Counted from the stretch's first letter, positions 3,832 through 13,063 are shown. The stretch: DNA of 32,000 nt from Formosa sp. Hel1_33_131 (GCF_001735745.1 NZ_CP017260.1:2340001-2372000); one strand, 5' to 3'. Notes: generated by a model from the sequence alone, not told the origin. Numbers and translations are program-made.

Positions 3832-4254
3832 TTATTTTTTAACAAGACTGTTTAGAAACTCATCTGGAGACATCACAGGTAGTAATGATTTTTTAAAATC
3901 TTTTCCGTTTCTAGTAATGATTAATTCACAACCAGATTCGATAGCACTAAAATATTGAAGCGCATCTTCAAAATCCTTAAATGATGAATTTAAGCCTTTT
4001 TCAATAGTTTGTGCATCAAGAGAACAAATTTCACTTATAACATTGAACTTCCTCAGTTTTTCTCGAGCCTTTTTAGAGTTTTCAAATTTTGATAGAAAAT
4101 AATTCAAGGTTGCATATGAAATAGGAGAAACCACTAAAGTTAAAACTTCTTTTTCCCCTAAGGATGCTATTTTAGCAATGGACTCATAGAAAGGTTTACG
4201 CTCCCCCAAAAGGTCTAACATTACATTTGTATCTATAAAAATTCTTTTACTCAT
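3832..4254 (-). CDS. PIN-domain toxin (VapC-like)
   Basis: 140 aa. N-terminal IFIDTNVMLD acidic motif and C-terminal ITRNGKDF, as in PIN proteins. ATGA overlap with the upstream small ORF. Confidence 0.75.
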   Translation of the reverse strand: MSKRIFIDTNVMLDLLGERKPFYESIAKIASLGEKEVLTLVVSPISYATLNYFLSKFENSKKAREKLRKFNVISEICSLDAQTIEKGLNSSFKDFEDALQYFSAIESGCELIITRNGKDFKKSLLPVMSPDEFLNSLVKK

Positions 4255-4499
4255 TGATATTTCTCTATTAAGTAATCAGAGTAAACTTCTTTATCATCTA
4301 AATCAGCAGGAATGTTAATCCCTGTTGCCATACTTTTTACAAAAGGAGATATTTCAAAATCCGTTTTATTTTTTTCAGACGTTAGCGACTGCAGATAAGC
4401 CTCAATAATTCTAGATAAACTCATTTTTTTATCAGAAGCATATTTTTTTGCATTCTCAATAATTTCCTGATTTAACTTTAATGTTAGTTTAGTATCCAT
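4251..4499 (-). CDS. cognate antitoxin-like small protein
   Basis: 82 aa. Its stop overlaps the PIN start by 4 nt (ATGA at 4251-4254). N-terminal LTLKLNQEIIENAKKYA...SLSRIIEAYL resembles an RHH-like antitoxin. Confidence 0.55.
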   Translation of the reverse strand: MDTKLTLKLNQEIIENAKKYASDKKMSLSRIIEAYLQSLTSEKNKTDFEISPFVKSMATGINIPADLDDKEVYSDYLIEKYQ

Positions 4500-4927: not shown

Positions 4928-4951
4928 TTTCTTTAAGTTCGTTTTCAGCTT

Positions 4952-5091
4952 GTTGCCAACGGTTTTGTGTATGGTTAGTTGCGTGATTAAGCAACTAATT
5001 TAGTAAACAAAAACGAGCGCGAGAAAATTCCGAAGGAATTTTCCAAGTAGGCAACGACCAAAGCAATTAATTATACACGGTGTTAGCAAAT
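4952..5091 (-). repeat. attC-like junction element (long form) 3' of the SBBP/T9SS unit
   Basis: Plus-strand layout: GTTGCCAAC (4952-4960), 6-nt spacer, 16-bp stem 4967-4982/5063-5078 (13 Watson-Crick pairs plus 3 G-T), 3-nt spacer, GTTAGCAAAT (5082-5091). The 80-nt loop holds a nested 9-bp hairpin at 5023-5043. Confidence 0.5.
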
Positions 5092-5092
5092 G

Positions 5093-6739
5093 TTATTTTT
5101 TTACAATCTTAATTATCTGTTGGCTATTCTGCGTTTTTATAGTTAAGAAATAGATTCCTTTTGTATTTGGTAATTCAAGGTTTTTGTTAATTATGGAACT
5201 ATAAGTTTGTATTTTAATTATTTTTCCTAAAACATCAGTAATAATAAACTGAACATTATTTACTATTCGACTAAAATTGATGTTTATTATACCTTCCGAA
5301 GGGTTAGGGTAAGCAATTACTTTAATTTTATTACTAATCTCTTGTACTCCTAAATTACTTTGACTCATTTTCTGAACAAAGACATCATAATTTCCTAATG
5401 AAATTAAGTCATTAGTGCCCAAATCAGGGTCAAAATCTACTGTGCCATTAAACCCTCCTACAGTATAAATGTTTTCGGAAGTATCTACAGCTATTGATAT
5501 ACCAGAATCGCTATTACTTCCTCCAAAGGATTTTGCCCAAATTGAATTGCCATTTGTATCCATTTTCTGAACAAAGACATCCCCAGCTCCTTCAGATGTT
5601 AAGTTGTTGATTCCAGTACCAGGATCAAAATCTACAGTTCCATAAAAATAACCTATCAGATAAAGGTCTCCAGAAGCACCTATAACTATTGAGGTACTAC
5701 CATCTAGATTAGCTCCTCCAAAGGATTTTGCCCAAATAAAATTTCCATTTGCATCCATTTTCTGAACAAAGACATCCCTACTTCCTGATGCTGTCAAGTT
5801 ACTTATTGACGTTCCTGAATCAAAATCAACAATGCCTTCAAAATATCCTGTAGTATATACATTTCCAGAAGCGTCTGTAATTATTGAACTACCACCTTCA
5901 TGATCATCTCCTGCAAGGGATTTTGCCCAAAGGAAATTCCCATTTGCATCCATTTTCTGAACAAAGACATCATCATATCCATTTCCTCCTGTTAAGATAC
6001 TAATCCCTGATCCAGGATCAAAATCTCCTGAACCTCGAAAATATCCTGTAGTATATACATTTCCAGAAATATCTAAAGCTATAGATTTCCCTTCACTATA
6101 TCCATTTCCTCCAAATGATTTTGCCCAAAGAAAATTACCGTTGGTATCCAACTTCTGTACAAAAATACCTCTAGTCCCAAACGCTGTTAAGTTGCTTATC
6201 CCTGTTCCCGGATCAAAATCAACAGTACCTTGAAAATATCCTGTAGTGTATACATTTCCAGAAGTATCAACAACTATTGAGAAACCAATGCATATTAAAG
6301 ATGATTCTAAAAAAATTTCCCAAAGGATATTGCCATTGGTGTCCATTTTCTGCACAAAAACATTTCCATTAAATTCTCCTGTTATATAGACATTGTTAGA
6401 AGTATCCAAAGCTATTGAGTAACCAATATTATCACTAAAGGAAGACCCTCCTAAAGATTTTGCCCATTGAAAATTGCCATTTGCATCCAACTTCTGTACA
6501 AAAATACCTTCATCCCCTGACGATGTTAAGTTGCTTATTCCAGTTCCTGGGTCAAAATCTACAGTACCTTGAAAAAAACCTGTAGTATACACATTTCCCA
6601 AAGCGTCAACAGCTATTGAGTAACCAATATCATTATTTATTTCTCCAAAAGATTTTGCCCATTCAAATGTTTGAGCATTTATTGTATTGAATCCTAAAAA
6701 TAGAATTGTAAAAAAGAGTACTTTTAAATTTGTTTTCAT
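5093..6739 (-). CDS. secreted beta-propeller repeat protein (SBBP-type) with T9SS C-terminal sorting domain
   Basis: Signal peptide, then about 7 repeats of GNVYTTGYFxGTVDFDPGTGxxNLTxxGxxDVFVQKMDxNGNFxWAKSFGG. C-terminal ...YPNPSEGIININF...GIYFLTIKTQNSQQIIKIVKK is typical of the type A sorting domain. Confidence 0.85.
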   Translation of the reverse strand: MKTNLKVLFFTILFLGFNTINAQTFEWAKSFGEINNDIGYSIAVDALGNVYTTGFFQGTVDFDPGTGISNLTSSGDEGIFVQKLDANGNFQWAKSLGGSSFSDNIGYSIALDTSNNVYITGEFNGNVFVQKMDTNGNILWEIFLESSLICIGFSIVVDTSGNVYTTGYFQGTVDFDPGTGISNLTAFGTRGIFVQKLDTNGNFLWAKSFGGNGYSEGKSIALDISGNVYTTGYFRGSGDFDPGSGISILTGGNGYDDVFVQKMDANGNFLWAKSLAGDDHEGGSSIITDASGNVYTTGYFEGIVDFDSGTSISNLTASGSRDVFVQKMDANGNFIWAKSFGGANLDGSTSIVIGASGDLYLIGYFYGTVDFDPGTGINNLTSEGAGDVFVQKMDTNGNSIWAKSFGGSNSDSGISIAVDTSENIYTVGGFNGTVDFDPDLGTNDLISLGNYDVFVQKMSQSNLGVQEISNKIKVIAYPNPSEGIININFSRIVNNVQFIITDVLGKIIKIQTYSSIINKNLELPNTKGIYFLTIKTQNSQQIIKIVKK

Positions 6740-6767
6740 CTTAATTTTTTGTTTTCGGTATGCTAAT

Positions 6768-6832
6768 ATTTGCTAACGGTTGGGCTATGCGCAGTGTCCG
6801 GAAGGGCATTGCGTATAGGTGTTGTTGTGCGT
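6768..6832 (-). repeat. attC-like junction element between the SBBP unit and the three-gene unit
   Basis: Plus-strand layout: ATTTGCTAAC, 7-nt spacer, 15-bp stem 6785-6799/6804-6818 (12 Watson-Crick pairs plus 3 G-T) with a 4-nt loop, 5-nt spacer, GTTGTGCGT. Confidence 0.55.
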
Positions 6833-6867
6833 TCGTGCTTTACTTTTCATATTTTCCTCTTCTAAGG

Positions 6868-7440
6868 TTACAATCCATTTACCTTAAATATTAATACACA
6901 CAGTGCTTTATCAAATCGGTGGTAAATTTTTTCCTCTTCTTTTTTGTCGAGAATGGAGTACTTGAATCCTTTTTTTTGAAAGTCACCTCCTGTAACCATT
7001 TTTCGATATTGAAAACGACAACTCTTTATCTCATCAAAGTCATCCTTAAACTTGTTCTTTCCACAATGATCAGAAAGAGTAATAATAGTGTCAAGTTCGT
7101 TAGAGATAGTTGTAAATAGACTTATCAGTTGGTATGTGTTTGCAGTTGAAACGGCCTGTTTTTGAACGCATTCTGCAACGGTGTGATTCACAATTCGAAT
7201 AGTTCCTTGCAAGGCCTCAACTTTGCGAATAATTACATCTTTCTCGCTTCTCTTGTTATGCATGTTTCGCTCAAGAAAAATCGGGATGTAGACAGCAAGA
7301 AAAATTGTGACAAGCAAAGTTGCCAATCCAACTACATCAATTTTGTCTTCAAATGAAAAGAGCGGGTAATAATGCTGTAATCCCATTCCGATTACAACAC
7401 CAACAATTACCAGTATAACTCCAATAATGTAGCGTATCAT
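6868..7440 (-). CDS. 2-TM membrane protein of unknown function (candidate effector)
   Basis: 190 aa. Two N-terminal hydrophobic helices (IIGVILVIVGVVIGMGL, VVGLATLLVTIFLAVYIPIFL), then a soluble helical region. The start overlaps the upstream stop as ATGA (7437-7440). Confidence 0.55.
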   Translation of the reverse strand: MIRYIIGVILVIVGVVIGMGLQHYYPLFSFEDKIDVVGLATLLVTIFLAVYIPIFLERNMHNKRSEKDVIIRKVEALQGTIRIVNHTVAECVQKQAVSTANTYQLISLFTTISNELDTIITLSDHCGKNKFKDDFDEIKSCRFQYRKMVTGGDFQKKGFKYSILDKKEEEKIYHRFDKALCVLIFKVNGL

Positions 7441-7793
7441 TTTTCGTTGGCTTCTTTAATGTACTCGATAATGTCATCTTCTAGGAACGGATCATCATCT
7501 GATTTGAATTCTAGGTTGGCCAGCACGATTTTGGATTCCTTGTACTCCCTTGCAAGACCACCAAAGGCAGCTTCAAGAAAAGAAGTTGCATAGCCTGCCG
7601 TACCATCAAGGTCGATTAACAATTTTTTCTTCTCCGTGAGTGCTTGCTTAAATTTTGGTAGGAGAATCTTTTCCAAAAACTCTTCTCCAGGGAAATCGCC
7701 TTCAATTTCCTCCCGTACACCAGGAATCGTAGTGTAGTCGTTTGCTATTTTAATAATTAACTTGTCCATCTGTTTGTGTTGTTTAGTTCCCAA
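7437..7793 (-). CDS. STAS-like small protein (DUF4325-type)
   Basis: 118 aa (110 aa if the start is the MDKLII Met at 7769). The core LLIDLDGTAGYATSFLEAAFGGL resembles the STAS / anti-sigma-antagonist strand-helix motif. It overlaps both neighbouring genes. Confidence 0.55.
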   Translation of the reverse strand: MGTKQHKQMDKLIIKIANDYTTIPGVREEIEGDFPGEEFLEKILLPKFKQALTEKKKLLIDLDGTAGYATSFLEAAFGGLAREYKESKIVLANLEFKSDDDPFLEDDIIEYIKEANEK

Positions 7794-8785
7794 TAAAGAA
7801 ATGTTCCACTAAATTCTTTTGATAGTCTTTCAAATTTGTCTGTGCTCAAATCAGCCTTCACATCATTCGAAATAATTTTAAGATTGCTGTAGTAATTGCG
7901 TTCAAGGCCTCTGTATATGTTTGGTAATCCCTTACCTCTATAAGGGATCTTAGTGCTTGACATTTTTCGGCCACTGATGATTTCTTTCAATACATCACGG
8001 TTGTCTGTGATACCAAAGAAGGATGTTAGTTTGTCACGGAATCCACTCATTTTTGAAGACTTAAAGATTCCAACTCCCATATCAATGAAAGCAAAAGATA
8101 CCTTGTTATGAGCTTGGTCGTGATACACTGTGAGCCACCAAGTTTCCTGCCCTACTTGTTGGGGTTTAGCATGATAGCAGGTATTTGCCATGCATTCCAT
8201 TAATGCACTATAAATACCCATACATCTTGCCTCTTGTCCAAATACGATTTTTGTTGCTCGTTTTATCAATTCATTGGCAATACCGCCTTCTGCTTTCTTA
8301 TTCTGTCGAGTAAGAATGTAATTCTTGTGTTCGCTATCTGAACTACTTGCACCAAAAACACCGCTTTCCTGAAATATCTTCCTCAATTCTTCATCTCTAG
8401 GGTAGTTGCCTTTAATCGGAACTCCTTTGGTTATTGCAGGATTCTTTACAATCGCTAGTAAAAGGACAATAGCATCATTTGTCAAGTTGGTAATGTCCTT
8501 TAGGTTAATTAAAACCGGCTTTCTGTGATTAATCTTTTCTCGAATTCTTTCTAGATACGCTAAAACGGCAACCGTATTCTCTACAAATGAAAAATTCGAA
8601 GGTGCATGCAAACTCTCAAATTGGCTGATTATCCTTCTTTCACGTTGTTCTGCGATTGGAACCCCATCTGTTGCTCTTCTCTTTGCTTTGGCTTTTTCTT
8701 TACTCAATAGCTGTTGCTTCAAACGATCTTTTGCCCGTTTGGTATTGCGCTTTTTATACTCAGCTGTTGTGTAAAGTTTCTTCAT
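7757..8785 (-). CDS. GHKL-superfamily ATPase/kinase-like protein with basic N-terminal tail and an internal STAS-like segment
   Basis: N-box-like ALMECMANTCYHA, G1-like FIDMGVGI, G2-like RGKGLPNI, terminal GTFLYWEL. Residues 1-50 are Lys/Arg-rich. Residues ~55-140 (VLINLKDITNLTNDAIVLLLAIV) look STAS-like. Confidence 0.6.
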   Translation of the reverse strand: MKKLYTTAEYKKRNTKRAKDRLKQQLLSKEKAKAKRRATDGVPIAEQRERRIISQFESLHAPSNFSFVENTVAVLAYLERIREKINHRKPVLINLKDITNLTNDAIVLLLAIVKNPAITKGVPIKGNYPRDEELRKIFQESGVFGASSSDSEHKNYILTRQNKKAEGGIANELIKRATKIVFGQEARCMGIYSALMECMANTCYHAKPQQVGQETWWLTVYHDQAHNKVSFAFIDMGVGIFKSSKMSGFRDKLTSFFGITDNRDVLKEIISGRKMSSTKIPYRGKGLPNIYRGLERNYYSNLKIISNDVKADLSTDKFERLSKEFSGTFLYWELNNTNRWTS

Positions 8786-8831
8786 TTAAATTTCACTTCC
8801 TGTCTAGGCTTAGCTTGTTCTTTTTTGTATG

Positions 8832-8888
8832 ACGCACAACGGTCTTTGTAAAATGCGTTTTAATGCATCTTTACATATTGTTAGCTGC
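8832..8888 (-). repeat. attC-like junction element between the three-gene unit and the helicase unit
   Basis: Plus-strand layout: ACGCACAAC, 6-nt spacer, stem 8847-8856/8865-8875 (6 bp + 4 bp, with C8869 extrahelical), 4-nt spacer, GTTAGCTGC. Confidence 0.5.
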
Positions 8889-8904
8889 TGGTTTTTGTTT
8901 TTTT

Positions 8905-11058
8905 TTATTCATTTAGTTTTTGTTCGTCTCCGCAATATGGACAGAAAGCGAAGCCTTCGTCCAAGCGGTTGCTACATTTTGAGCAAAGCGTTATTTCCTC
9001 AATTACAGACTTAAATGGAATACTAGTCTTGAAAGTAAAATTATCTGGAATCTCTTTTAGAAAACTCGATTCATTTCCTTTTTCTGTAATAAGAAACAGG
9101 TCGTCTTTTGCTCTTGTGATTGCTACATAAAAAAGTCGTCTTTCTTCTTCAAGTAACAGGTCGTGATTCGATTCTTTGATAACTTGATAAATTCTGTCCT
9201 CCATCCAAATGTCAGGAAATCCTCCACCTCCTTCTGTCAAACCGATAATAAAGACTGCTTTTGCTTCAAGTCCTTTTGAAGCGTGAATTGTTTTGCCTGA
9301 AACAAATACTCGTTCTTGTTTGAATCTTTCAAAATATGGACTGTACATTTTACTTCTGCGATAGAGAAATAGAATATCCTCTTTCGTGTAGCCTTTTTCT
9401 TTTAGCTTGTGTACTTGGTCAAGCACATATTCAATGTTTTCAGCTTCATTTTTCCCTGAATATATGTGAATCTTGCTACTTGACTTTTTATTGGACTGAA
9501 CATTTTTATTTACCTTGAATTTGTTATGCTTGATTACTTCATTACTTGCACCAACAATATGTTCGGTGCTTCTGTAATTCATACTCAATTTTATAGTTTC
9601 GGAATCCTTAAAATGCTTCTTGAAATTTACAATGTAATCTACATTTGAACCTCTGAATCCATATATGCTTTGCCAATCATCTCCAACGCAGAAAAGTTGG
9701 TTTTTAGCTGTCAACAGAAGTTTAATTAATTCCACTTGCAGGTTGTTTACATCTTGAAATTCATCTACTAGAATATATTCATATTTACCTCTGAACTTAT
9801 CTGCTATTTCATTATGATTTTTAAATAGCGAAATGGTCTTTGTAATCATATCGTTGAAGTCGAGATATGATTTGTTGGTGCAATACGATTGATATTGTTC
9901 TATTGCAGGAATGGCAAGTTTGTAAAAATCTCTAACTCGTTCGTGTTGGTCTTTTTGTGATTGTTCTAAAACCATTTTTGTTGGTATATTCTCCACTTTT
10001 ATCATATCAATTACACGCATAGTTTGGCGTAAAAAGTCTTTTACTTCTTTGTGGTAAGAGTTAAATTCCTCCTCAAAAGACAGGGCAGTAGAGAAGTGGT
10101 AATTTGAAGGAAGTCTATTTTTTACAATTCGCTCTAAAACCAAATTAAACAGCGCTGTATCTTTTGTTTGGTGCTCAAATGTTTTTACAAGTAGTTTGTT
10201 TGCTTTGTTAAACTGTTGTTCTTTGCCTTTAGTTGGATAACTTTTTTGGCTTACGTGTTCTAAGTACAGATTGGCTTCTGGAATGAAAAAATCTGGTCTA
10301 AAATCAAAATCTCTGAAATTCACATTAGGTTCATACTCGAACTTGATACTGTGGCGATAAAGCCAATCAGCAATATATTGTTCAGATTTTGAACGAACCT
10401 TAGTTCCGTTTAATGTTGTGTAAAATTTACCGTCCTTAGGTAAGGAAAGACGTTTGTCTTTTTCAATGTGGATTTTATCAATCATATAATCCAAAATGTA
10501 TCTTTTCAAGTTGAGCAGATACTCGTTGGATTCGCAGTTTTCGATTAGAATTTTATGAATGACTTCAAAAGCTGTTTCGGTAGCCGAATACTTTGCAAAT
10601 TCATCATCTGTAGCTTTTGTATCTCCAATAATTTTGAATTTGTTGTCAAATTCATTTACTCCAAAATTTCGGATAATGCCGTAGCAAAGACTATGAAAAG
10701 TCTTGAGCGTTAGGTTATCAATCCATTTGTACTTCTTGGTGAAAAAGTATCGTTCTGTATCTTTTTCTTTTGCAGTTCGATTTTTGTTTGCTAAAATTTC
10801 GACATATTCTTCTGTATCATCTGCTGAAATAATAAGCCTATCAAGCATTTCATTAGCGGCATTTTTAGTAAAAGTGATTGCCAAAATGTTGCTTGGATTT
10901 ACTCCCTTTTCTTCAATGAGATAAATTAGCTTTTGAAGTAAGGTTTTCGTTTTTCCCGAACCTGCTCCTGCAAGTACAAGAAGTCTTTTACATTCAGAAA
11001 CTACAGCTTGTCTCTGTTTTTCATTCAGTCCACTTAAATCAGTTTTGGTTTCCGTCAT
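8905..11058 (-). CDS. SF1 UvrD/Rep-like helicase with embedded restriction-endonuclease-fold-like insert and C-terminal zinc ribbon
   Basis: Helicase motifs I AGAGSGKT, Ia ILAITFTKNAANEM, II ILVDEFQDVN, III VGDDWQSIYGFRG, IV NYRS, V IHASKGLEAKAVFI, VI YVAITRAKDDLFL. The insert between Ia and II carries SKSEQYIADWL...FEYE...RPDFFIP...LYLEH. The C-terminus is CSKCSNRLDEGFAFCPYCG. Confidence 0.88.
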   Translation of the reverse strand: MTETKTDLSGLNEKQRQAVVSECKRLLVLAGAGSGKTKTLLQKLIYLIEEKGVNPSNILAITFTKNAANEMLDRLIISADDTEEYVEILANKNRTAKEKDTERYFFTKKYKWIDNLTLKTFHSLCYGIIRNFGVNEFDNKFKIIGDTKATDDEFAKYSATETAFEVIHKILIENCESNEYLLNLKRYILDYMIDKIHIEKDKRLSLPKDGKFYTTLNGTKVRSKSEQYIADWLYRHSIKFEYEPNVNFRDFDFRPDFFIPEANLYLEHVSQKSYPTKGKEQQFNKANKLLVKTFEHQTKDTALFNLVLERIVKNRLPSNYHFSTALSFEEEFNSYHKEVKDFLRQTMRVIDMIKVENIPTKMVLEQSQKDQHERVRDFYKLAIPAIEQYQSYCTNKSYLDFNDMITKTISLFKNHNEIADKFRGKYEYILVDEFQDVNNLQVELIKLLLTAKNQLFCVGDDWQSIYGFRGSNVDYIVNFKKHFKDSETIKLSMNYRSTEHIVGASNEVIKHNKFKVNKNVQSNKKSSSKIHIYSGKNEAENIEYVLDQVHKLKEKGYTKEDILFLYRRSKMYSPYFERFKQERVFVSGKTIHASKGLEAKAVFIIGLTEGGGGFPDIWMEDRIYQVIKESNHDLLLEEERRLFYVAITRAKDDLFLITEKGNESSFLKEIPDNFTFKTSIPFKSVIEEITLCSKCSNRLDEGFAFCPYCGDEQKLNE

Positions 11059-11788
11059 CTTTCAGATTTTGAGATTCATAAATTAGTCTTTGTCCATTAG
11101 ATTCTATTGAGCCTTTCCCTCTTTGGAAGCATTCAGAAAGTAGGTCAAGGTCATTTGTGTATTTGATAGCTTTGTTTAGAAGCTCTTTTTCCATATCAGT
11201 CCAAGATTCGTATGCTCTTGGGTGATTGATTCTTGCAATCTGAACGTATTCAGAAAGGTTTTCGGTCTTTTGAATTCCTAATTGGTCAACCTTTTCTTTT
11301 AGCTGATTAACAGCTTTTTCGGTGAGCTTATTGAATGTTTCTTTTTGAAAAAAGTCAATTTCCTTGTAAGGGTTGTTTTTTCGATTGTTTCTGTTGGTCA
11401 AGTTGTTGTCTGAAAGATATTGAGTGAAAAAATCTAAAAGCTGTCCTTTTTGGTAGAGATTCCGATACTTTCCATAGAGTTGATTTGAAACAAGAGTTTC
11501 ATTTTTGAATTTCCTTGTCCCAAGGAAGAAGCCAACTAATTTATTGGAAGTAGGGTTTTGCTCTTTTTCTTTAAATAAGTCAATTACGTTTTTAATTTCC
11601 AAATCGTCAATCTCAATTTCTGAAACTGGTTGTGGTTGATTTGTTTTTAGGTAGTCAATAGCAATTTGTAATGCTCGGATAACATCACGTTCATTTAAGA
11701 CACTTTCATTGTCAATCATTTCTCCTGTTGTGGGTGAACAACCTGAGACAAGGGCTTCTAATATTTCTATGGTTCTATTTATATCCAT
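11039..11788 (-). CDS. uncharacterised 249-aa partner of the helicase
   Basis: It overlaps the helicase start by 20 nt. The C-terminal RAYESWTDMEKELL...CFQRGKGSIESNGQRL resembles a SANT/Myb-like W-x3-E-x2-L helix-turn-helix. This assignment is weak and rests on the motif alone. Confidence 0.5.
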   Translation of the reverse strand: MDINRTIEILEALVSGCSPTTGEMIDNESVLNERDVIRALQIAIDYLKTNQPQPVSEIEIDDLEIKNVIDLFKEKEQNPTSNKLVGFFLGTRKFKNETLVSNQLYGKYRNLYQKGQLLDFFTQYLSDNNLTNRNNRKNNPYKEIDFFQKETFNKLTEKAVNQLKEKVDQLGIQKTENLSEYVQIARINHPRAYESWTDMEKELLNKAIKYTNDLDLLSECFQRGKGSIESNGQRLIYESQNLKDDGNQN

Positions 11789-11804
11789 TCGGTTTCTTCA
11801 ACTT

Positions 11805-11876
11805 GCAGCTAACGTTAAGTATATGAAGCGTTGCCTGCCGATAGGCGGCTATGATTTCATATACAGTGTTAGGCAC
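11805..11876 (-). repeat. attC-like junction element between the helicase unit and the Sel1-like unit
   Basis: Plus-strand layout: GCAGCTAAC, 5-nt spacer, 9-bp perfect stem 11819-11827/11856-11864 plus an inner GC stem around GATA, 3-nt spacer, GTTAGGCAC. On the minus strand the end boxes read GCCTAAC ... GTTAGCT. Confidence 0.6.
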
Positions 11877-11884
11877 TTTTTTTT

Positions 11885-12991
11885 TTAATTTTTTCTACTT
11901 TCATAATACTTATACACGACCGCCAATTCTTGCCAACGATTGTTTTCGAGCGAGTAAAAGCTAAAGCTTAGTTGAGTGTAATTCGTTCTATATCTTTTTT
12001 GGTCTAGAAAAAGAACTAGTGTACTATCTCTTAGGAAAATTGGTTTTGAGAAGGTATAAACGATAGAGCACATATTCTTTTCCTTTTCAGTTCCTAGTTT
12101 TTCAGTTTGGTCGAATGTATTTTGAATTTCTTGTGGACTATCAAGACGACTAGAGTAAGGAAATAGATGTTCTTCCCATTCGTGATTCGATAGCGTGCTT
12201 AATTCCTTTAAGATATAACTCTTTTCTTCAGCTGATAACTTTAAATTTTCAGTTTGTTTCCCTCTGTATAATGACCATAATTCAAATTCTTCAGTTGTCT
12301 CAATAGCTGATATCGTTGAATTGATTATTGATGTGTCTATGGACTTTGTATAATAGAGAGTGTCACACTCAAACCTTTCATATTTCCACCTTGATACCCA
12401 ATCTCTGTAAGGATCTTCCATCAGCTCTAATTTATTCTCAGGTATCTCAGACTTTTTGGATTTTTCATTACCCACATCAGGAATAGTAGCGTTGAATTCT
12501 TCAAGATTTATTTTGTCAAAGGTTTGCTTTTTTTCTTCTAGTATCTGCTTAGCTGATTGTAACTCCTCAGAAGACATATAAGCCTTGATTAAATATCTAG
12601 TGGTCGTTCCTTTTTGAATCGGGTCATAAGCAGCAGCAATTTCAGCCCAGACCAAAGCATCTACTTTATATTTTGGATTGGTTGAACTCTTTTCAAAATA
12701 CACAACAGATAATAATCCCATTGCTCTCCCAAACTCTTGATTTGCAGATTTAACTAAATACTGTTCAGCCAGTGAGTCATTTTTTATTTCTAATTCCTTA
12801 CTGTAATAACAAAATCCAACAATAAACTGGGCTACTTTATCACCTGAATTTGCATATGGCTGCATTATTTTAAAAGACTTCATGAATTGTTTCGAATCAA
12901 AAGCTTTCAGTCCTTTTTCAAACCTAGCATCTTGTGAAAATGTTATTGTTGATATGAAGCAAAATAATATTATTGATGTAAATTTTTTCAT
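11885..12991 (-). CDS. secreted protein with N-terminal Sel1-like repeats and an unknown C-terminal domain
   Basis: Signal peptide MKKFTSIILFCFISTITFSQ. Segments such as GDKVAQFIVGFCYY and EFGRAMGLLSVVYF are Sel1/TPR-like. Confidence 0.5.
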   Translation of the reverse strand: MKKFTSIILFCFISTITFSQDARFEKGLKAFDSKQFMKSFKIMQPYANSGDKVAQFIVGFCYYSKELEIKNDSLAEQYLVKSANQEFGRAMGLLSVVYFEKSSTNPKYKVDALVWAEIAAAYDPIQKGTTTRYLIKAYMSSEELQSAKQILEEKKQTFDKINLEEFNATIPDVGNEKSKKSEIPENKLELMEDPYRDWVSRWKYERFECDTLYYTKSIDTSIINSTISAIETTEEFELWSLYRGKQTENLKLSAEEKSYILKELSTLSNHEWEEHLFPYSSRLDSPQEIQNTFDQTEKLGTEKEKNMCSIVYTFSKPIFLRDSTLVLFLDQKRYRTNYTQLSFSFYSLENNRWQELAVVYKYYESRKN

Positions 12992-13063
12992 TGTATTTAA
13001 TTGTGCCTAACTAGTGTGTATATATCCCTTAGGTGTGCATATTTCCATTATATCCAGTGTTTT

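Follow-up and report, generated by a model that had tools for sequence, protein, structure and literature searches.

We have analysed a stretch of 32,000 nucleotides (nt), hereafter the window, from Formosa sp. Hel1_33_131, a marine flavobacterium (2.7-Mb). On its minus strand, which carries every open reading frame (ORF) between 3832 and 17145, lie two overlapping genes, one for a 249-amino-acid (aa) protein that we call A and one for a 717-aa protein that the genome annotation names "helicase UvrD". Sequence comparison and structure prediction indicate that the second is a superfamily 1A (SF1A) helicase with a Vsr-like nuclease fold built into its motor, that A belongs to a new protein family, and that the two genes travel together in what reads as a single integron-type cassette of 2.97 kb, from 11812 to 8840 (-). 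ORF calling of the window confirmed the two ORFs, their coordinates and their 20-nt overlap as given in a preliminary description of this DNA. The features are collected in Table 1.

Table 1. Coordinates of the A+helicase cassette, of the domains that it encodes and of the cassettes next to it (window numbering)
Feature	Coordinates	Strand	Description
Helicase gene	8905..11058	(-)	717-aa SF1A UvrD-family protein without 2B domain, C-terminal half helicase-IV-like
Gene A (FORMB_22720)	11039..11788	(-)	249-aa, all-alpha, family not described before
A-end/helicase-start overlap	11039..11058	(-)	20 nt, translational coupling
Predicted PD-(D/E)xK/Vsr-like nuclease core, helicase residues ~205-300	10159..10446	(-)	alpha-beta-beta-beta-alpha-beta
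Zinc ribbon, helicase residues 688-712	8923..8997	(-)	CSKC-x10-CPYC
N-terminal two-helix motif of A, residues 1-50	11639..11788	(-)	LxALxxGxSPxTGE...LN..V.RAL, conserved
Myb/SANT-like three-helix segment of A, residues 190-245	11054..11221	(-)	PRAYESW-x3-E-x2-LL...TNDL..L..CFQRGKGSI
R' 5' boundary box of A+helicase cassette	11805..11813	(-)	GTTAGCTGC, 16 nt before A start codon
attC-like site of preceding 368-aa cassette	11807..11876	(-)	R'' GTGCCTAAC (11876-11868), imperfect hairpin, R' GTTAGCT (11813-11807)
attC-like site of A+helicase cassette	8834..8888	(-)	R'' GCAGCTAAC, hairpin GTAAA[G]ATGC...GCATTTTAC (single-base bulge), R' GTTGTGC (8840-8834)
368-aa cassette	R' 13011-13003; R'' 11876-11868	(-)	R' GTTAGGCAC, R'' GTGCCTAAC
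342+118+190-aa cassette	R' 8840-8832; R'' 6832-6824	(-)	R' GTTGTGCGT, R'' ACGCACAAC
Neighbouring three-gene cassette, genes	6868-8785	(-)	342 aa, 118-aa DUF4325 STAS-like, 190-aa membrane protein
548-aa cassette	R' 6777-6768; R'' 5091-5082	(-)	R' GTTAGCAAAT, R'' ATTTGCTAAC

The identity of the motor was settled by motifs and profiles. Every helicase motif quoted in the preliminary description was found in the 717-aa protein (AGAGSGKT at residue 30, DEFQD at 432, GDDWQSIYGFRG at 459, NYRS at 494 and ITRAK at 647), and the Pfam families UvrD-helicase (2.9e-64, 217.8 bits against a cutoff of 23) and UvrD_C (9.4e-28, 98.1 bits against 25.6) both match above their gathering scores. Conservation of motifs I, Ia, II, III, V and VI places the protein in SF1A. 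The alignment with PcrA spans query residues 8-76, 373-570 and 589-658; query 77-372 takes the place of PcrA 78-162, and nothing in the query corresponds to PcrA 362-562, a gap that the alignment crosses within 19 query residues. The protein therefore departs from the four-subdomain layout and is a 2B-less variant. The same alignment corrects the size of the insertion between motifs Ia and II, put at about 300 aa in the preliminary description: the excess over PcrA is ~210 aa, because part of the region 136-395 is the normal 1B domain.

The insertion had been read as a restriction-endonuclease fold. A Pfam search with it ended without a match, its profile found nothing among PDB sequences, and a search for homologues of the insert by itself returned nothing but fragments of the same helicase family, with no independent domain family. 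The structural evidence came from an AlphaFold2 (AF2) model of residues 136-395, with a predicted local distance difference test score (pLDDT) of 80, in which the alpha-beta-beta-beta-alpha-beta core spans residues ~214-295. Foldseek comparison of this model with the PDB retrieved almost only nucleases of the PD-(D/E)xK/Vsr type, and the top hits all share the fold. Matches were obtained to PvuRts1I (4oq2; E 0.018, probability 1.0), to the catalytic domain of I-Bth0305I (3r3p_B; template-modelling score (TM) 0.71 on the target, root-mean-square deviation 3.0 Å, 102 columns) and to the DUF559 protein NGO0050 (3hrl; TM 0.68), with further matches to AbaSI, R2 restriction-like endonuclease domains, RAP-domain proteins, Bax1 and T7 endonuclease I. 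The insert sequence also matches the PADLOC profiles PDC-S69 (2e-12), PDC-S68 (7e-11) and HEAT_CxxC_PD-DEXK (2e-6). Taken together, the Foldseek and PADLOC results support the claimed fold, of Vsr/DUF559-like type, and by the alignment with PcrA it occupies the 1B position of the helicase.

The insert carries the motifs SKSEQ (residue 223), RPDF (254) and LEH (266), and E226, E243, D256, E267, H268, S270 and K279 are invariant in the helicase family. The EDxHD active site of Vsr (PMC3239194) served as the reference. E226 aligns with its E25, D256 with D51 and E267 with position 62, H268 is one residue off H64, and there is no Lys at +2, the invariant K279 lying in alpha2. Because the His and Lys positions are shifted relative to the Vsr site, catalytic competence of the predicted domain is only plausible. 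A 1259-aa UvrD-domain protein on a megaplasmid of the haloarchaeon Natribaculum luteum (L057:3129-6908), its gene adjoined by an IS630 transposase, has a segment that shares 31% identity with the nuclease insert (E 3e-4); the helicase with nuclease insert, as judged by sequence, may extend to Archaea.

Downstream of the motor, the cysteine pairs CSKC (692) and CPYC (706) form the zinc ribbon. Zn_Ribbon_1, DUF7575 and DZR match residues 688-712, each under its Pfam cutoff, and all four Cys are invariant among 115 helicase homologues. The C-terminal ribbon of the preliminary description is thus retained, with a spacing of 10 residues (C695 to C706) in place of 12.

Protein A has no match in Pfam, NCBIfam, PADLOC or PDB sequences, and its profile found nothing among PDB sequences either. 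The AF2 model (all-alpha, pLDDT 83, predicted TM score 0.43) has no significant structural neighbour in the structure libraries. A word-indexed search gave 268 homologues and an exhaustive profile search 716 cluster representatives, mostly from Bacteroidota, and these searches suggest that A represents a new protein family. It is absent from 50,697 phage records, and a single plasmid match was obtained, on a Persicobacter megaplasmid. The N-terminal motif has L13, G16, S18, P19, G22, R34, I37, R38 and A39 invariant and recurs in P0318 and P0400. A degenerate HRDC domain was considered for this N-terminus, as HRDC holds the position in RecQ fusions, and was rejected at an hhalign probability of 0.1%.

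At the C-terminus of A, the AF2 model places helices at 198-207, 214-221 and 225-245, and R186, R191, E194, W196, E200 and R223 are near-invariant among 82 diverse members. Pfam Myb_DNA-bind_6 matches 9 of these 82 (best E 6.4e-5) and Myb_DNA-binding 5 (best E 2.5e-6); the window's own A protein gives no Pfam Myb match. The three-helix prediction and the matches in family members support the SANT/Myb-like C-terminus noted earlier. Several A homologues (P0069, P0106, P0113) are labelled 'ribosomal protein S18' by JGI, and the sole signal in that direction was a very weak Foldseek match (E 8.5) of the A model to chain R of an S. aureus 70S ribosome structure; the label is probably an annotation artefact.

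The pairing of A with the helicase was followed in other genomes. The pair was found in at least 15 other loci (L001-3, L009-15, L017, L018, L022, L025 and L029) and the overlap is kept in these, the first in-frame helicase start overlapping A by 4 to 59 nt. Counted over the A-centred loci with enough downstream sequence, the helicase is present in 15/36 and absent in 21/36 (~58%), and it is present in 8/8 loci where A is at least 76% identical to that of the window. Seen from the other side, A accompanies the helicase in none of 8 independent helicase-centred loci; two have an RNase H1-type gene upstream and six have no intact upstream partner. The two-gene unit therefore stands as a recurrent association and is not supported as an obligate pairing, and the question whether homologues of the 249-aa protein always accompany the helicase is answered in the negative.

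The slot upstream of the helicase takes other occupants. In L043 and L051 (Cellulophaga and Geojedonia), an RNase H1-type gene (Cauli_VI+RNase_H) lies 3 nt upstream of the helicase, and decayed 3'-end remnants of such a gene precede it in L044 and L052. No remnants of A were found by tblastn upstream of solo helicases. The helicase is solo in Pedobacter, where trmD and rimM flank it; other solo cases are L046-49, L050 and L053, near ParE and RES-Xre genes. In Pedobacter sp. MR2016-19 (L045:5133-8709) it lies on the opposite strand, interrupts the conserved rpsP-rimM-trmD-rplS cluster and is without cassette flanks. In Cellulophaga sp. Hel_I_12 (L043:8614-12814), 199-aa Acetyltransf_3 genes stand on both sides of the RNase H+helicase pair, which may mean insertion between paralogues or a duplication.

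Gene fusions point in the same direction. The CHC2 zinc finger of DnaG is fused to the helicase in P0135 and to A in P0318, and A(140-244) is fused to the helicase in P0172. Seven representatives carry a RecQ-HRDC-A(55-245) fusion in which the A part follows HRDC, and P0412 combines a full Mokosh II MkoC profile (1019 bits) with an A module, A(145-230), at residues 1166-1251, at the C-terminus. From the solo loci, the alternative partners and the fusions it follows that the helicase-nuclease is a self-sufficient core whose upstream slot takes exchangeable nucleic-acid-binding modules, and from the loci and fusions of A that A is a portable module with affinity for helicase/nuclease enzymes.

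Where A stands without the helicase, it adjoins type I restriction-modification (R-M) genes (L005), a TIR+Mrr pair (L007), RADAR RdrA/RdrB (L004), a NERD protein (L038), a 1604-aa DpdF/PsyrT-like plus GajB-like double helicase (L008), M78+DUF4411 (L054), a PLD-SNF2/MmeI-like locus (L055) or housekeeping genes (L006 and L056, the latter with mfd). The RADAR-like case is from a metagenome-assembled genome (MAG) of Chitinophagaceae (L004:3345-8579), in which RdrA/RdrB (PADLOC 1e-31 and 2e-30) are divergent from the A homologue. Such neighbours raise the question whether A is mainly a transcription regulator of downstream genes, with a role like that of BrxR or CapW in defence islands, and not a helicase subunit. 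Its Myb-like C-terminus is of the helix-turn-helix type, it lies 5' of, or divergent from, the R-M, TIR+Mrr, DpdF/GajB-like helicase, M78+DUF4411 and PLD-SNF2 genes, and in L007 and L020 it forms a cassette of its own. Nevertheless, the overlapping helicase start argues for stoichiometric co-production of the two proteins, A domains are covalently fused to MkoC, to RecQ and to this helicase, and no operator-like repeat was found between A and its neighbours. Moreover, adjacent cassettes are independent units, so that adjacency is weak evidence. We consider a mainly regulatory A decidedly unlikely.

An integron cassette consists of an ORF followed by an attC site (R''...AAC, L'', L', R' GTT...), and the TT-box at its 5' end is the complement of the R'' at its 3' end. 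The A+helicase unit has this geometry. The R' box (11813-11805) is the exact reverse complement of the R'' box (8888-8880), so that the bracket at 8880 and 11813 noted in the preliminary description is real, a 9-nt exact inverted repeat (null probability of at least 9 nt, P = 0.014 for each random pair of 60-nt flanks); what had been overlooked is its probable nature as the R'/R'' pair of an integron-type cassette that stands in an array. The 5' edge reads cG|TTAGCTGCaag on the coding strand (11813-11805), and the cassette begins at G|TT within the R' box GTTAGCT of the preceding attC-like site. At the 3' edge, ccaGCAGCTAAC (8888-8880) is followed by an imperfect one-bulge hairpin and then by gaccGTTGTGC (8840-8834), and this last R' box opens the next cassette. 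As bottom-strand DNA, the site at 11807..11876 folds at -13.4 kcal/mol (z = -3.5) with its R boxes paired, and the site at 8834..8888 folds weakly (z = -0.6).

The same pattern was observed in four consecutive units. Their cognate R'/R'' boxes match exactly over 9, 9, 9 and 10 nt and each match begins with GTT, while non-cognate pairs match over 5-8 nt, apart from one 9-nt match which is an attC hairpin common to adjacent flanks. The four attC-like sites measure 70, 55, 62 and 138 nt, the expectation for attC being ~57-141 nt, and three of them fold better than shuffled sequences as bottom-strand DNA (z = -3.5, -2.8 and -2.7). A generic fold-based attC scanner found one site only and the cognate-complementarity test was used in its place; the weakness of the scanner arises because minimum-free-energy folding rarely pairs AAC with GTT.

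Related loci carry the boxes as well. Those of the window also flank A+helicase in L010 and A alone in L020, the box of L011 differs from them by one base (GTTAACTGC), that of L012 is degenerate, and nucleotide homology to L010-L012 starts at 11814. In L007, A is flanked by the covarying pair GTTGGCAGC...GCTGCCAAC, and cognate 12-mers at this locus agree at 9.6 of 12 positions, those of non-cognate pairs at 7.4. This locus (L007:5300-20400, a Chitinophagaceae MAG) holds at least 15 co-oriented small cassettes in ~20 kb, separated by homogeneous repeats of 210-240 nt which resemble Vibrio cholerae repeats and are longer than classical attC; the cargo includes A alone and a pair of TIR and Mrr_cat genes.

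In the window, the four cassettes lie within 4950-13011 (-), and a fifth, degenerate one opens at GTTGGCAAC (4960-4952). The 548-aa product of the last of the four is a secreted repeat protein with a tail of the type IX secretion system type at its C-terminus. At the distal end of the array, a 140-aa PIN-like ORF and an overlapping upstream 82-aa ORF (3832-4499, (-)) resemble a toxin-antitoxin (TA) pair on sequence inspection. At the upstream edge, perfect 72-bp direct repeats (14517-14446 and 13327-13256) flank a gene pair for 183 aa and 141 aa (HTH_3) that matches the PADLOC candidate profiles PDC-M64B/C, an insertion that appears to have arisen by a mechanism different from that of the cassettes. 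The next cassette downstream had been called a GHKL/STAS unit. Its 118-aa protein is indeed STAS-like (DUF4325), and no GHKL identity of the 342-aa protein emerged from Pfam and PDB sequence searches. The 90%-identity cluster of this 342-aa protein includes Cyclobacterium, so that the three-gene cassette is also horizontally shared. Two ORFs of the 300-aa class in the window were considered as integrase candidates; one turned out to encode a 2OG oxygenase, the other a protein of the arginase family. Rfam models gave no match in the window, the attC covariance model of IntegronFinder being no part of Rfam.

The cassette context explains the modularity and the horizontal spread of the unit. The distribution of the helicase is sporadic, over at least 8 unrelated chromosomal contexts, and its 90%-identity cluster covers Formosa, Allomuricauda, Dokdonia and Kordia; identity above 90% across four genera together with unrelated insertion sites means horizontal transfer. 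These observations bear on whether the protein is an accessory genome-maintenance helicase of the helicase IV/HelD kind, which would resolve R-loops or transcription-replication conflicts, the nuclease processing the strand that is displaced, with recognition of the nucleic-acid structure left to A or to RNase H. Its C-terminal half is collinear with the helicase IV and HelD profiles, the 2B domain is absent as in HelD, and JGI annotates homologues as 'DNA helicase-4'. The RNase H1-type partner of L043 and L051, with its hybrid-binding domain, and its remnants in L044 and L052 would suit such a role, as would the A domains fused to RecQ, A beside mfd in L056, and mutS2, which adjoins the cassette array in the window. 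The scores, however, stay under every equivalog cutoff (NCBIfam helicase IV 257.9 bits against 543, HelD_BACSU 66 against 419), and the N-terminal arm that HelD inserts into the RNA polymerase channel has no counterpart. The absence of synteny, the sporadic occurrence, the high identity between genera, the mobile packaging and the kinship of the nuclease domain with defence candidates also oppose it, and we hold a maintenance role to be unlikely. By its profile scores and genomic contexts, the helicase is not a syntenic core repair gene, in keeping with the preliminary description.

Mobility could also serve the cassette itself. A selfish or addiction element would cut empty sites in the manner of homing, or kill after segregation, A being the antidote. 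In structure, the nuclease comes closest to the catalytic domain of a homing endonuclease (3r3p), single genes are precisely inserted at unrelated sites, including the inside of the trmD-rimM operon, and TA cassettes are common in such arrays. Against this stand the stability of the helicase without A in many genomes, by which A is not a required antidote, the lack of a sequence-specific DNA-binding domain typical of homing enzymes, and the solo loci, at which no flanking target duplications were found. A selfish function is thus very improbable.

Anti-phage immunity has made repeated use of proteins that fuse a helicase with a nuclease. Given the domain composition, coupling, modularity, mobility and cassette packaging established above, we propose that the unit is a candidate helicase-nuclease effector cassette against invading DNA, with A as an optional adaptor; whether it acts in defence is an evenly balanced question. 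The proposal draws on the relatives of the nuclease domain, which are defence candidates (PDC-S68/S69), on the fusion of the A module to MkoC, on the sporadic and horizontally transferred distribution, and on neighbouring genes, which are often defence or TA genes (in related loci also ParE, RES-Xre and C5-methyltransferase+MutH). It also draws on the known defence cargo of integron cassettes, in which compact defence systems have been shown to abound (10.1101/2024.07.02.601686; 10.1101/2024.07.02.601719).

Several observations weigh against this proposal. By PADLOC, neither protein is a member of a validated defence family, the helicase matches reflecting generic UvrD similarity. In the nuclease motif, Lys and His do not keep the canonical register (E267-H268-V269). 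A is often alone, and the helicase is often alone among housekeeping genes (L044-L049), so that the pair is not a fixed system, and the A-helicase fusion P0172 is a single cluster that may have arisen from a frameshift or from faulty gene calling. The proximity of A to defence genes may in part reflect mere co-residence in cassette arrays. As to the cassette, the homology of orthologous cassettes ends right after R'' and their attC centres differ, and some loci lack cassette flanks. No IntI, attI or cassette promoter (Pc) was found in the window, where the remaining ORFs outside the array were not searched for an integrase, and because no integrase was found the array is provisionally described as resembling a cluster of attC sites lacking integron-integrase (CALIN).

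If the unit is a defence effector, the motor would engage DNA at ends, at forks or at replication intermediates and move 3'->5', and the nuclease embedded at the 1B site would cut the strand unwound by the motor, the zinc ribbon possibly adding a contact with DNA or a partner. A might bind DNA and/or the helicase and set substrate choice or licensing. This adaptor role is suggested by the RNase H1-type protein or DnaG-type zinc finger that holds the slot before the helicase in other genomes, and by natural fusions, which join A domains to RecQ helicases and to the MkoC of Mokosh II and, in one case, the C-terminal part of A to this helicase; the RNase H with hybrid-binding domain, or the CHC2 finger, would play the same directing or licensing part elsewhere. 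The cassette would be expressed by read-through, as in integron arrays, since the 16 nt between R' and ATG leave no promoter room. It is further possible, though we put it forward tentatively, that A is a portable nucleic-acid-sensing or licensing module for unrelated defence motors (MkoC, RecQ-like and UvrD-nuclease), and that Bacteroidota have functional integron-like arrays that shuffle such cassettes and have largely been missed by surveys.

In the literature searched, no description of the helicase architecture or of the A family was found; no described system has a Vsr-like nuclease within 1B of a 2B-less UvrD motor, or the pairing with a Myb-like adaptor. The closest relatives in design are Hhe, Nhi, Hna and HmaA, in which a motor of superfamily 1 or 2 and a nuclease of PD-(D/E)xK/Vsr type likewise share one polypeptide in variable genomic regions. 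Hhe, for instance, combines a DUF4011 superfamily 1 helicase with a Vsr endonuclease, and mutation of the Vsr domain abolishes defence (10.1101/2022.06.16.496414; PMC11232893). In contrast to these four, the window's motor is a UvrD-like SF1A enzyme without 2B, its nuclease fold lies inside 1B and not at a terminus, the C-terminus bears a zinc ribbon, and the upstream gene adds an optional partner. None of the four families is among the 25 best PADLOC hits, and the PADLOC search supports the earlier statement that the layout does not match Gabija, Nhi, Hachiman or Hna.

Gabija shares a UvrD-family helicase in a two-gene unit, and PADLOC GajB profiles reach 216 bits, a likeness confined to the generic UvrD core, for PcrA and UvrD outscore GajB. 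GajA, the OLD ATPase-TOPRIM protein, is missing, and A and all neighbours are without a match to GajA or another PADLOC profile. Type II Gabija (Liu-DS1) pairs a GajB homologue bearing an added domain with the small hypothetical protein GajC (PMC13069673); GajC is folded like a split MazF, which sets it apart from the all-alpha, Myb-like A. DarH is a looser parallel as a 2B-less helicase (PMC13069673). Helicase IV of E. coli and HelD of Bacillus and Mycobacterium share with the window's helicase the 2B-less UvrD family, a 1A/1B insertion and a collinear C-terminal half, and differ from it in that the latter scores under their cutoffs, has no N-terminal secondary-channel arm, carries the nuclease-fold insert and is mobile and sporadic.

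The array resembles integron cassettes and CALIN elements in its co-oriented ORFs, little promoter room, imperfect hairpin sites bounded by ...AAC and GTT..., 5' TT-boxes complementary to their own R'' and TA cassettes, and defence-type cargo is typical of sedentary chromosomal integron cassettes, described as 'biobanks' (10.1101/2024.07.02.601686). It differs in that neither IntI, attI nor Pc was found, in its Bacteroidota host, in the unusual length of a ~3 kb cassette and in its varying attC centres. Integron surveys report almost nothing in Bacteroidetes (PMC9024848; 10.1101/2024.07.02.601686), and reviews count the group among phyla with integrons (PMC8618304, PMC9668308). Its setting in an array of cassettes suggests that genes are shuffled in the integron manner in marine Flavobacteriaceae and Chitinophagaceae, and since surveys report almost no integrons in these lineages, they would constitute a new source of compact genes for defence.

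Finally, Mokosh type II MkoC (P0412, A residues ~145-245) and RecQ (A residues ~55-245) share the A-type C-terminal module. The A of the window is free-standing, with an extra N-terminal motif, and its helicase is neither MkoC nor RecQ, the profile of MkoC (a superfamily 1 helicase with a PLD nuclease) matching neither window protein. The A domain thus connects three otherwise unrelated helicase families, Mokosh II included, and the exchangeable partner slot, which holds A, an RNase H with hybrid-binding domain or a DnaG zinc finger, is a natural experiment on substrate choice by motors.

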